This document shows positions 3,134 to 13,072 of a DNA stretch of 15,313 nt, one piece after another. The notes beneath the pieces were generated by a model that worked only from the letters and a program-made list of their open reading frames with translations, had not been told where the DNA came from and ran no database searches. Source of the stretch: Escherichia coli (GTDB taxonomy: Bacteria; Pseudomonadota; Gammaproteobacteria; Enterobacterales; Enterobacteriaceae); assembly GCF_003334315.1 (NCBI RefSeq), contig NZ_QOWR01000076.1, one strand, 5' to 3'. Positions within the stretch are counted from its first letter, which is position 1; every line of letters begins with the position of its first letter. The position numbers and the translations under genes were made by a program.

Positions 3134-4429
<1,296 letters not shown>

Positions 4430-4438
4430 TTAAAAAAA

Positions 4439-4465
4439 CCGCTCTCATCGAATGGATGAGAGCGG
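4439..4465. terminator. Bidirectional intrinsic terminator between convergent ybdG and pheP
   Basis: 11-bp perfect stem CCGCTCTCATC / GATGAGAGCGG with a 5-nt loop (4439..4465). An A7 run at 4432-4438 gives a U7 tail for the minus-strand (pheP) transcript; GTTTTG at 4471-4476 gives a weaker tail for the plus-strand (ybdG) transcript. Confidence 0.7.
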
Positions 4466-4496
4466 ACATCGTTTTGTCGGATGTAGCGTGAATGCC

Positions 4497-5873
4497 TTAT
4501 TTCCGACGCAGCGTTTTAAATGCCACAAACAGGAATACAATCCACACCGGCAGCAGGATCGCTGACAAGCGCATATCATCCATCGTGCACATCAGCAGCA
4601 AAATCATGCCGAGGAAGGCGATGCAAAGATAGTTGCCGAACGGATAAAGCAGCGCCTTAAACTGTGTTTCACGCCCCTGACGTCGCATCGCTGCACGAAA
4701 ACGCAGATGCGCCAGACAAATCATAATCCAGTTCAACAGCAGCGTTGCTACCACCAGCGCCATCAGCAGACCAAACGCTTTATGCGGCAGCAGATAGTTG
4801 ATTAACACCACCAGCGAAGTGATCGCTCCGGAAAGCATCAGCGAGTTAATCGGCACACCGCGACGGCTGACGCGAGTCAAAAACTTCGGCGCATTACCCT
4901 GCACAGAAAGGCCAAACAGCATGCGGCTGTTAGAGTAAACCCCGCTATTATACACTGACAGCGATGCTACCAGAATGACGAAGTTCAGCGCAGAAGCTAC
5001 CACGTTGCTGTCGAGATTATGGAAAATCATCACAAACGGGCTACTGTTGGATTTCACTTCCATCCACGGATAGAGCGCCAGTAAAACCACCAGTGAACCG
5101 ATGTAAAACAGCAGGATGCGATACACCACCTGATTTACCGCTTTTGGAATGCTTTTTTCCGGATCGCGCGCTTCAGCGGCAGTAATCCCAATCAGCTCCA
5201 GACCGCCGAAGGAGAACATAATTACCGCCAGCGACAAAATCAGCCCATTCCAGCCGGTGACGAAGAAACCACCGTAGCGCCAGAGGTTGTCGATACTGGC
5301 TTTCTCGCCGCCGTGACCAGAAAACAGCAGCCACAGGCCAAAGCCGATCATACCGATGATCGCCAGCACTTTAATCAGCGCAAACCAGAACTCGGTTTCG
5401 CCATATAAGCGCACGTTCACCAGGTTAACGGCGTTGATGATAATAAAGAAGGCGGCAGCCCAAATCCACGTTGGAACATCCGGGAACCAGTACTGCATAT
5501 AGATGCCCGCAGCGGTCAGCTCTGCCATTCCCACCAGCACGAACATTACCCAGTAGTTCCAGCCAGAGAGGAAGCCCGCAAACGGTCCCCAGTATTTATA
5601 GGCAAAGTGGGCAAATGAACCGGATACCGGCTCCTCAACCACCATTTCGCCAAGCTGGCGCATAATCAGGAAAGCGATGATCCCGGCGACGCCGTAGCCC
5701 AGCAATACAGCCGGACCCGCCATCTGAATCGCCGGGCCAATGCCAAGAAACAGACCAGTACCAATTGCGCCACCCAACGCAATCAGTTGAATATGACGGT
5801 TATGTAATCCGCGATGAAGCGTCGGCTCTTGATTCGACGCAGTATCTTCCGATACGGTTGACGCGTTTTTCAC
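4497..5873 (-). CDS. pheP: PheP, phenylalanine-specific permease (APC-family amino acid transporter)
   Basis: Minus-strand ORF. I chose the GTG start at 5873, preceded on the minus strand by CAGGGGAAAGGC, giving a 458-aa product (MKNASTVSEDTASNQEPTLHRGLHNRHIQLIALGGAIGTGLFLG...). Polytopic membrane protein that matches my recollection of E. coli PheP. The track's longer ORF (to 5909) starts at a non-canonical codon. Confidence 0.9.
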   Translation of the reverse strand: MKNASTVSEDTASNQEPTLHRGLHNRHIQLIALGGAIGTGLFLGIGPAIQMAGPAVLLGYGVAGIIAFLIMRQLGEMVVEEPVSGSFAHFAYKYWGPFAGFLSGWNYWVMFVLVGMAELTAAGIYMQYWFPDVPTWIWAAAFFIIINAVNLVNVRLYGETEFWFALIKVLAIIGMIGFGLWLLFSGHGGEKASIDNLWRYGGFFVTGWNGLILSLAVIMFSFGGLELIGITAAEARDPEKSIPKAVNQVVYRILLFYIGSLVVLLALYPWMEVKSNSSPFVMIFHNLDSNVVASALNFVILVASLSVYNSGVYSNSRMLFGLSVQGNAPKFLTRVSRRGVPINSLMLSGAITSLVVLINYLLPHKAFGLLMALVVATLLLNWIMICLAHLRFRAAMRRQGRETQFKALLYPFGNYLCIAFLGMILLLMCTMDDMRLSAILLPVWIVFLFVAFKTLRRK

Positions 5874-10858: not shown

Positions 10859-12232
10859 TCAACCGCCACCAAGTGCGGTATACAAAGAAATTTCGTTAAC
10901 CTGACGGGCATAATTCAGGTCGAGTAAAGTTTGTCGGGTTGCAAATAAAGAACGCTCGGCATCCAGCACTTCCAGATAACTTACTGCGCCGTGCTGATAT
11001 AATGCCCGCGCCCGTTGCAAAGTAATTTGCAGCGATGCCAGATAACGCTGCTGGGCGCTAATTTGATCGTTCAGGCTTTGACGTAATGCCAGCGCATCTG
11101 CCACTTCTTTAAAGGCGTTCTGGATTTTCTGTTCATAATTCACCACCGACTGCTGCTGGCGAATTTCGGCGATATCCAGATTGGCCTGGTTGCGTCCGGC
11201 ATTAAAAATGGGGATCTCAATTTTGGGTATAAAATTCCACATCCCGCTGCTGGCGTTAAATAATGACGATAGATCGCTACTGGCGGTCGATATTCCGCTG
11301 GTCAGGCTTATAGACGGAAAAAATGCCGCGCGTGCAGCGCCAATATTGGCATTAGCCGCCATTAACGCGTGTTCAGCTTCCATAATATCCGGGCGCTGCA
11401 ATAAGATTTGCGACGACAATCCCGCCGGTAATTTAACGCTTTGCAGGCTGTCGCTGTTTACTGTCTGCGCTTGCGGCAGCTTGCCGTAGCTTCCCAATAA
11501 CAGTTGCAATGCATTATTCGCCTGCGCCAGTTCCCCCTGACGTTTAGCGATGTCGCTGCGGGTACTTTCAATCACCCCGCGAGCCTGTTCCAGCGCCAGA
11601 ACATTACTGCTACCTGTCAACAGTTGTTTTTCGACAAACGCATATGACTGCTGATAATTACGCAGCGTTTCTTCGGCTATTTGCAATTGCGCATACGCTA
11701 GCTGCTGATTGAAATAACTTTGCGCGACATTAGAAACCAGCAAAATATGCACCGCGCGCTGGGCTTCCTCAGTGGCTAAATAATTTTGGCGCTCGGCTTC
11801 GCTCATGTTCTTTAAGCGACCGAAAAAATCGAGGTCAAAGCTGGCGTTAAGGCCGGTCGAAAACTCCCGTGTCGTGGCGGTATTCCCTTTAAGATTACCG
11901 CTCCAGCTGCCGCTGCCCTCGCCATTGAGCTGTGGGTAGCGGTCGGCATCGGTCAGACGATATTGCGCCCGTGCCTCCTGCACTTTCAGCGTCGCCATGC
12001 GCAAATCCCGATTATTCACCAGCGCCTCGCTAATCAGCGTCTTCACCTGATTATCAACAAAAAAGGTGCGCCAGCCCGCGTTCTGATAGTTATCTGCTGC
12101 GTTAACCAGGCCGTTCTGGCTGAGTGAGAACTGCTGCGGCACGGGCATTGCCGGACGCTGATAATCCGGTGCCAGTGAACAACCGGTTAGCGCAAGGGCC
12201 ACACAAAATGGCAGAAGTTTACAAGGAGACAT
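10859..12232 (-). CDS. cusC: CusC, outer-membrane channel lipoprotein of the Cus efflux system (TolC-like)
   Basis: 457-aa ORF with a lipoprotein signal and lipobox (MSPCKLLPFCVALALTGCSLAP). Outer-membrane-factor family sequence, divergent from cusR and first gene of the cusCFBA operon. Confidence 0.95.
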   Translation of the reverse strand: MSPCKLLPFCVALALTGCSLAPDYQRPAMPVPQQFSLSQNGLVNAADNYQNAGWRTFFVDNQVKTLISEALVNNRDLRMATLKVQEARAQYRLTDADRYPQLNGEGSGSWSGNLKGNTATTREFSTGLNASFDLDFFGRLKNMSEAERQNYLATEEAQRAVHILLVSNVAQSYFNQQLAYAQLQIAEETLRNYQQSYAFVEKQLLTGSSNVLALEQARGVIESTRSDIAKRQGELAQANNALQLLLGSYGKLPQAQTVNSDSLQSVKLPAGLSSQILLQRPDIMEAEHALMAANANIGAARAAFFPSISLTSGISTASSDLSSLFNASSGMWNFIPKIEIPIFNAGRNQANLDIAEIRQQQSVVNYEQKIQNAFKEVADALALRQSLNDQISAQQRYLASLQITLQRARALYQHGAVSYLEVLDAERSLFATRQTLLDLNYARQVNEISLYTALGGG

Positions 12233-12301: not shown

Positions 12302-12323
12302 AAAATGACAAAATTGTCATTTT
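12302..12323. promoter_or_regulatory. CusR box (response-regulator binding palindrome) in the cusC/cusRS divergent control region
   Basis: AAAATGACAA-AA-TTGTCATTTT: two perfect 10-bp inverted arms around a 2-bp spacer, which is the published CusR-box consensus AAAATGACAANNTTGTCATTTT. It lies between a candidate cusC -10 (TATAAA on the minus strand, plus coordinates 12259..12254) and the candidate cusR promoter. Confidence 0.85.
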
Positions 12324-12388: not shown

Positions 12389-13072
12389 ATGAAACTGTTG
12401 ATTGTCGAAGATGAAAAGAAAACCGGAGAATACTTGACCAAAGGGTTAACCGAAGCCGGTTTTGTGGTCGATTTGGCCGACAACGGGCTGAATGGCTACC
12501 ATCTGGCGATGACCGGTGATTATGATCTGATAATCCTCGATATTATGCTGCCGGACGTGAACGGCTGGGATATCGTGCGCATGTTACGCTCCGCCAATAA
12601 AGGGATGCCGATTCTGTTGCTTACCGCGCTTGGCACCATTGAACATCGCGTCAAGGGGCTGGAGTTGGGGGCAGATGACTACCTGGTGAAGCCATTCGCT
12701 TTTGCTGAACTGCTGGCGCGGGTGCGCACATTACTGCGGCGCGGGGCGGCGGTGATTATCGAAAGTCAGTTTCAGGTTGCCGATTTGATGGTCGATCTCG
12801 TCAGCCGCAAAGTCACCCGCAGCGGCACGCGCATCACTTTGACCAGTAAAGAGTTTACTCTGCTGGAGTTCTTCCTTCGCCATCAGGGCGAAGTGCTGCC
12901 CCGCTCGCTTATCGCCTCGCAGGTATGGGACATGAATTTTGACAGCGATACCAATGCTATTGATGTGGCGGTGAAGCGGCTGCGCGGCAAAATCGACAAC
13001 GACTTTGAGCCGAAGCTAATTCAGACCGTGCGCGGCGTGGGTTACATGCTTGAGGTGCCGGATGGTCAGTAA
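12389..13072 (+). CDS. cusR: CusR, OmpR-family response regulator of the CusS/CusR two-component system
   Basis: 227-aa ORF, GGAGG at 12380-12384. Receiver domain with the conserved phospho-acceptor context ([17 protein letters not shown]) and a C-terminal winged-helix domain ([21 protein letters not shown]...). Matches my recollection of E. coli CusR. Confidence 0.95.

Follow-up and report, generated by a model that had tools for sequence, protein, structure and literature searches.

A hairpin between the convergent ybdG and pheP genes of Escherichia coli: the known terminator of pheP, probably shared unequally by ybdG

Organization of the ybdG–pheP gap

The window, by which we mean the whole stretch of 15,313 nucleotides of Escherichia coli DNA that was analyzed, carries ybdK, ybdJ, ybdF, nfsB, and ybdG on the plus strand, and these genes converge on pheP and cusA on the minus strand (RefSeq annotation; the records were identical over 4300–4620). 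The ends of ybdG and pheP at 4429 and 4497 leave a gap of 67 bp (4430–4496), in agreement with the sequence-only reading that was the starting point of this work. From the ybdG end, positions 4430–4476 read TTAAAAAAA-CCGCTCTCATC-GAATG-GATGAGAGCGG-ACATCGTTTTG. The features of the locus are listed in Table 1.

Table 1. Features of the ybdG–pheP locus (positions in the window)
Feature	Position	Strand	Remarks
ybdG (mechanosensitive channel YbdG/MscM), coding sequence	3182–4429	+	415-aa translation; stop codon TAA at 4427–4429; name from 100%-identical RefSeq records
A7 on the plus strand, U7 tract of the pheP transcript	4432–4438	−	Directly after the stem; pheP 3′ ends expected at about 4435
Terminator hairpin	4439–4465	Transcribed in both directions	Arms 4439–4449 and 4455–4465, loop 4450–4454 (GAATG); the 'pheP' hairpin CCGCTCTCATCCATTCGATGAGAGCGG
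ybdG-side tail ACATCGTTTTG	4466–4476	+	Lacks a proximal U-tract; a derived 13-bp deletion (relative to K-12) maps to the junction 4465/4466
REP (repetitive extragenic palindrome) remnant GTCGGATGTAGCGTGAATGCCTTATTTCCGAC	4477–4508	—	Second, weaker hairpin; includes the pheP stop codon
pheP (phenylalanine:H+ symporter), coding sequence	4497–5873	−	GTG start; 458 aa; stop codon at 4497–4499 (TTA on the plus strand); from translation, RefSeq annotation, and comparison of C-termini

Elsewhere in the window, a perfect 10-bp A+T-rich palindrome, AAAATGACAA-nn-TTGTCATTTT (12302–12323), was found between the ORFs 10859–12232 (minus strand) and 12389–13072 (plus strand). Judging from the known gene order, we take these two ORFs to be cusC and cusR, and the palindrome presumably matches the CusR-binding box.

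A single perfect hairpin in the gap

The arms of the hairpin, CCGCTCTCATC and GATGAGAGCGG, are 11 nt long, 100% complementary, and 5 nt apart, and the resulting 11-bp stem contains seven G-C pairs. An inverted-repeat search identified it as the sole perfect inverted repeat of at least 11 bp with a real loop in the window, so that the single perfect 11-bp stem-loop proposed by the sequence-only reading was borne out. Predicted folding gave −21.5 kcal/mol (z = −5.6) for the plus-strand RNA (the ybdG direction) and −19.8 kcal/mol (z = −6.4) for the minus-strand RNA (the pheP direction), and in each case none of 200 shuffled sequences was as stable. The G+C-rich stem-loop of an intrinsic terminator is thus present in both directions. 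By our own estimate (about 41 positions × 6 loop sizes / 4^11), about 6 × 10^−5 such hairpins would be expected by chance in a 67-bp gap. A generic terminator scan of the window ranked the hairpin as the best terminator-like match on both strands. The scan as a whole yielded 25 matches versus 17.3 ± 4.2 in shuffled sequences, a total not clearly over chance, and therefore only the match at the hairpin stands out.

The rest of the gap, which the sequence-only reading had passed over, is filled by the REP remnant, which overlaps the pheP stop codon. At the homologous position, strain CFT073 and E. albertii have a complete pair of inverted REPs, about 95 bp long. The Rfam model naRNA4, which is REP-derived, scored 34–38 bits on the REP pairs of CFT073 and E. 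albertii and 18 bits, a sub-threshold value, on the remnant in the window. Through a deletion with TCC(G/T)AC microhomology, the first REP became joined to the pheP end, and as a result pheP lost two codons and takes its stop from a REP motif: PheP was shortened from 460 to 458 residues, ending in ...RRK* in the window and K-12 versus ...RRKVN*, ...RRKAR*, or ...RRKSR* in relatives, and the TAA stop codon is now supplied by the REP motif CCTTAT. The REP remnant is unannotated in MG1655. An Rfam scan of 4000–5000 returned sub-threshold matches only. Among these, a match to mir-3618, a eukaryotic miRNA precursor (4391–4473; 25 bits versus a gathering score of 99), was spurious and due only to the long perfect hairpin, and a sub-threshold match to SNORD52 was likewise spurious.

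Termination in the pheP direction

The A7 tract, correctly noted by the sequence-only reading on one side of the stem, abuts the stem, and the pheP transcript accordingly continues from the hairpin directly into the tail UUUUUUUAAUU, an uninterrupted U-tract. The tail score T was 5.03, and the d'Aubenton-Carafa discriminant d, of which a positive value predicts a terminator and which is only semi-quantitative with the 1990 coefficients and modern folding energies used here, was +42.9 in both the window allele and K-12. An A6–A7 tract was kept in all Escherichia examined and is Escherichia-specific.

Published maps of K-12 agree with this prediction. In MG1655, where the hairpin lies at 603380–603406, the terminus of pheP has been mapped on the plus strand to 603405–603417 with a dominant end at 603410 ("E. 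coli – Barsheshet" sheet of the TRS study, PMC10687069). This range corresponds to 4440–4428 of the window, and the dominant end falls at about 4435, the fourth U of the U7 tract. In addition, the hairpin denoted 'pheP' in the supplement of a recent study, CCGCTCTCATCCATTCGATGAGAGCGG, coincides letter for letter with the minus strand of the window from 4465 to 4439 (10.64898/2026.06.17.733018). It is described there as a strong E. coli terminator, with reference to the terminator study of Chen et al. (2013), and it terminates transcription in reporter and in-vitro transcription constructs. From the structure, the identity to a tested terminator hairpin, and the K-12 3′ end within the U-tract, we conclude that pheP has in this hairpin a strong intrinsic terminator of the canonical type.

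The other sources consulted were silent about this site. A look-up by gene name and by coordinate gave no 3′ end of either gene in the curated Term-seq tables of Adams et al. (2021), an absence that low expression may plausibly explain, although this is our own assumption. The TERMITe and SMRT-Cappable-seq supplements contain no entries for pheP or ybdG, and full-text literature searches for a pheP terminator and for the hairpin sequence gave no match. A search for the paper that first described the pheP sequence was equally unproductive. The idea of a 3′-UTR-derived sRNA was dropped, as a literature search gave nothing bearing on the pheP 3′ end. The only paper found to join pheP, RIL-seq, and Hfq reportedly deals with the regulation of aromatic amino acid metabolism by GcvB.

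Termination in the ybdG direction and a 13-bp deletion

The situation in the ybdG direction depends on the allele. Alignment with K-12, CFT073, and other strains showed that K-12 reads GAGAGCGG-TTTCGGATGGTTG-ACATCG, whereas the window reads GAGAGCGG-ACATCG. The 13-bp segment TTTCGGATGGTTG is thus missing at the window junction 4465/4466, while it is present in one of our comparison loci (L001, 467–479). Since the homologous segment of 13–14 nt is retained in E. albertii, in a divergent Escherichia lineage (L008), and in CFT073, CE10, and strain 98194, the sequence comparison indicates that the window allele is a derived deletion. It is also the commonest allele, occurring in 3223 of 5426 complete E. 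coli genomes (59%), and its carriers include O157:H7, O111, and O145 strains. K-12, CFT073, CE10, and others carry the ancestral allele, and a K-12-type junction was counted in at least 1385 of the 5426 genomes.

In K-12, the hairpin is a symmetric AAA-stem-UUU structure of 14–15 bp (−28.6 and −27.8 kcal/mol by folding), and it is followed in the ybdG direction by UUUCGGAUGG, with d = +2.9. The deletion takes away three things: the nucleotides at which ybdG transcripts end in K-12, the proximal UUU, and the A-U extension of the stem. In the window, the three nucleotides adjacent to the stem are A, C, and A instead of the UUU of K-12, and the ybdG-direction tail is ACAUCGUUUUG, in which a U4 run starts at +7 and no U-tract lies within 0–2 nt of the stem. 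Consequently, T fell from 2.58 in K-12 to 0.44 in the window and d from +2.9 to −36, a value at which no terminator is predicted. The symmetry of A-tract, hairpin, and T-tract is also absent from the window, where A7 has no adjacent T-tract as its counterpart. The second U-tract claimed by the sequence-only reading, GTTTTG, does exist, but its T4 run (4472–4475) begins 6 nt past the stem and does not abut it.

For the K-12 allele, the ybdG 3′ end has been mapped. The primary terminus in MG1655 is on the minus strand at 603369–603377, with a dominant end at 603371 and a listed upstream sequence ending in ...GAGAGCGGUUUCGGAUGG (Supplementary Data 2, 3, and 4, PMC10687069), and a second terminus is given at 603370–603378 with a dominant end at 603374 ("E. 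coli – Barsheshet" sheet, PMC10687069). Position 603371 is the ninth nucleotide past the stem and lies within the 13-nt segment deleted from the window. Both convergent transcripts of K-12 therefore end at the hairpin, and they overlap by 37 nt (603374 on the minus strand and 603410 on the plus strand). Mapping of 3′ ends had been suggested by the sequence-only reading as a check of a shared bidirectional terminator, and the published MG1655 maps provide it: for the K-12 allele, termini on both strands flank the hairpin. The claim of a shared bidirectional terminator accordingly stood on the pheP side, which is canonical, and for K-12, in which ends were mapped on both strands. It did not hold in full for the window allele, whose ybdG side has no proximal U-tract, has lost the K-12 end nucleotides, and gives d = −36.

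Transcription on the ybdG strand beyond the hairpin is touched on by Adams et al. (2021), who reported a Rho termination region (Rho score 3.3) at MG1655 602863 on the minus strand, that is, on the ybdG strand and antisense within pheP, and another one inside ybdG at 604637. The former corresponds to about 4969 on the plus strand of the window, some 470 nt into pheP. It is compatible with read-through from ybdG but is no proof of it, as it could come from internal antisense promoters in pheP.

Conservation of the stem in Enterobacteriaceae

In a comparative set of 80 loci encoding YbdG relatives, the convergent pair of ybdG and pheP was found in Escherichia, Citrobacter, and Pluralibacter, and the homologous hairpin accompanied it in Escherichia and Citrobacter but not in Pluralibacter. 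In the four Citrobacter loci, the hairpin reads CCGATCTCATC-loop-GATGAGATCGG, in which 10 pairs are unchanged and one is replaced by a compensatory change from C-G to A-U, while the loop and both flanks have diverged between the two genera. All 11 pairs were kept in the 10 Escherichia and Citrobacter sequences read as plus-strand RNA, whereas slid controls paired in 26–49% of cells. These comparisons suggest that the stem is under selection, for which the compensatory change, a single event, is modest but real support, and they indicate that the stem is older than the Escherichia–Citrobacter split. Covariation beyond this one event was not obtained among the 80 loci, the test being limited by synteny. 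The tails, unlike the stem, are not conserved, and in Citrobacter neither direction gives a positive discriminant (−18 to −52).

Three natural substitutions in the stem were observed (window positions 4446, 4449, and 4456; L003, L088, L089, L008, L009, and L092): C8 to T in the CE10/5132 class, C11 to T in L008, and A to G in the 3′ arm in E. albertii and strain 98194. All three yield a G·U pair in the ybdG-sense RNA and an A·C mismatch in the pheP-sense RNA, and they weaken the pheP-sense hairpin from −19.1 kcal/mol to between −12.7 and −15.5 kcal/mol. This strand bias is the opposite of what would be predicted if pheP were the main client of the hairpin; with n = 3 the sample is too small, and three of three is not significant.

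Several other arrangements were seen at homologous positions. In Kluyvera, Pseudocitrobacter, Enterobacter, Lelliottia, and others (L012–L028, at about 1846–1960), the gene after ybdG is not pheP, and in several of these loci TCAGGCGCTGGCGCG just past the ybdG stop resembles the end of a putative convergent ORF that abuts the stop codon. In at least two strains, IS200C is inserted inside the A7 tract (L004, 1630–2201; L091, 334–642; corresponding to window positions 4433–4438) and replaces the terminator, and in L004 the genes beyond it are those of a lambdoid prophage (ren and the gene for replication protein P) and not pheP. A 7.8-kb contig deposited as 'Marinobacter sp. B9-2' (L007, PYVH01000101.1) is identical to the window over the ybdG end and the gap, and its PheP match shows 98.9% amino acid identity; we regard the contig as almost certain E. 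coli contamination of a Marinobacter assembly.

Discussion

We consider it likely that the hairpin represents the Rho-independent terminator already known for pheP and that ybdG shares it unequally. In the pheP direction, the polymerase would transcribe the REP remnant, then the 11-bp G+C-rich stem, and then the uninterrupted U7, and transcripts would end at about 4435. In the ybdG direction, the same stem would form 10 nt past the stop codon and would be followed in the window by ACAUCGUUUUG, because the derived deletion removed the K-12 tail UUUCGGAUGGUUG. The hairpin of the window allele may still cause some pausing or termination of ybdG transcription and may act as a 3′-protective stem. 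The ybdG side would then be leaky, and the polymerases reading through would proceed antisense into pheP, where they would be stopped by Rho. While the hairpin demonstrably marks the ybdG 3′ end in K-12, efficient termination of ybdG in the window strain would have to be inferred from the sequence. The asymmetry between the two sides follows from sequence rules, from which we infer that termination on the ybdG side is less efficient in the deletion allele. Termination of ybdG could nevertheless persist after the loss of the proximal U's, because many bidirectional terminators of E. coli without canonical features give sharp 3′ ends. Moreover, any defect caused by the deletion is presumably well tolerated, as the deletion allele is the majority one.

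Several alternative explanations were considered. One of them regards the hairpin as no more than an RNA-stability element for ybdG, with Rho terminating transcription downstream and 3′–5′ exonucleases trimming the RNA back to the stem. The Rho termination region on the ybdG strand inside pheP, the spread of the K-12 ybdG ends from +3 to +11 past the stem, which is compatible with trimming, and the conservation of the stem where the tails are not conserved all speak for it. We nevertheless regard it as unlikely, since the distance of the dominant K-12 end (+9) agrees with the 7–9 nt typical of intrinsic termination, the K-12 tail opens with UUU and lengthens the stem by A-U pairs, and Rho scoring over 800-nt windows does not allow read-through from ybdG to be told apart from internal starts on the antisense strand.

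The reading proposed from the sequence, in which the hairpin of the window allele efficiently terminates both transcripts by the intrinsic mechanism and the distal UUUU (4472–4475) serves as the U-tract of ybdG, seems rather doubtful to us. The same stem is present in both RNAs, ends are mapped on both strands in K-12, and the U4 at +7 to +10 coincides with the position of the polymerase when the hairpin is completed; the scan also lists a plus-strand site, since the tail window contains at least five T. Against this, the stem is followed immediately by A, C, and A and not by the UUU of K-12, the discriminant is −36 compared with +2.9, and the deletion has removed both the nucleotides at which ybdG ends in K-12 and the A-U extension of the stem. 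The sequence-only reading was thus partly supported: it was right in kind and for K-12, and over-stated for the window allele on the ybdG side. Its description of the hairpin as a marker of the boundary between ybdG and pheP was sound, as a genuine terminator hairpin lies at that boundary.

Termination could also be driven by collision (the model of Ju 2019 and Wang 2022): the hairpin would pause the polymerases, head-on and trailing collisions would release them, and the U-tracts would be secondary. This would account for the Citrobacter stem, which is kept although neither side has a canonical U-tract (d from −18 to −52), and for the 37-nt overlap of the K-12 termini across the hairpin. We consider it improbable, because the model predicts heavy convergent traffic, whereas ybdG coverage is low, pheP appears to be weakly transcribed, and the curated Term-seq tables of Adams et al. 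give no end for either gene; for the pheP side, already canonical, it is unnecessary. Finally, the palindrome might be a DNA-level repeat or a target of mobile elements (REP-like or an IS landing site) and not an RNA signal; it adjoins the REP remnant and IS200C entered its A-tract in at least two strains, but the hairpin is single-copy (a median of one place per genome) and has no similarity to REP, the compensatory change preserves its pairing, and it works as a terminator hairpin in heterologous constructs, so that this explanation is hardly credible. A role of the hairpin as a dispersed repeat was rejected because it is single-copy, REP/BIME elements being defined by dispersed copies.

Taken together with the published data, the hairpin, probably shared unequally by pheP and ybdG, is real, functional, ordinary, and already known. 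It delimits the pheP and ybdG transcription units at their 3′ ends, and, as a signal of a textbook type that is already in use as a terminator part, it has little significance beyond annotation. The added value of the present analysis is comparative and modest: the stem has persisted since before the Escherichia–Citrobacter split, while U-tracts come and go. The tail nucleotides on the ybdG side are precisely where two common E. coli alleles differ, and this pair could provide a clean test of how the tail sets the directionality of a terminator. It is conceivable, if rather unlikely, that the 13-bp indel switches the terminator from two-way to essentially one-way, in which case ybdG transcription in the deletion allele would run antisense into pheP and alter expression of the phenylalanine transporter by transcriptional interference. 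If this were true, the locus would be a ready-made natural experiment on what makes terminators bidirectional.

Comparison with known systems

Using SEnd-seq, Ju et al. in 2019 reportedly found overlapping bidirectional terminators where E. coli genes converge. Those described for E. coli convergent genes, such as ynaJ–uspE, include many without canonical features that nevertheless give sharp 3′ ends (10.1101/2022.10.23.513370). The ybdG–pheP hairpin resembles these terminators in that one hairpin lies between convergent genes and the K-12 3′ ends overlap across it, and it resembles ynaJ–uspE in the asymmetry of its U-tracts in the two directions. It differs from them in that its pheP side is fully canonical and strong, and in that the other side of the window allele has lost its proximal U's by the 13-bp deletion.

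One close relative is the pheP terminator part used in the study of a tug-of-war riboswitch (10.64898/2026.06.17.733018), in which the hairpin is identical to that of the window and is followed by a U-rich tail. The constructs of that study carry a synthetic poly-U or the tail of another element and not the native UUUUUUUAAUU, and they use the pheP orientation only.

REPs are present in about 30% of convergent gaps (10.64898/2026.03.23.713779). A REP-derived hairpin lies in the same gap as the terminator (4477–4508), a situation similar to that of the REP/BIME elements acting as 3′-UTR terminators or stabilizers. Unlike these, the terminator hairpin is single-copy and of unrelated sequence, and the REP of the window is a decayed remnant.

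The same convergent gene pair in Pluralibacter (L016) also has a single hairpin in its gap of 49 bp (1845–1894), as in the window. The sequence of that hairpin, AAAGAAATCCCGCC-AGAT-GGCGGGATTTCTTT, is unrelated, and its perfect symmetry of A-tract and T-tract represents the textbook two-way design that is absent from the window allele. It seems that Pluralibacter solved the same problem independently.
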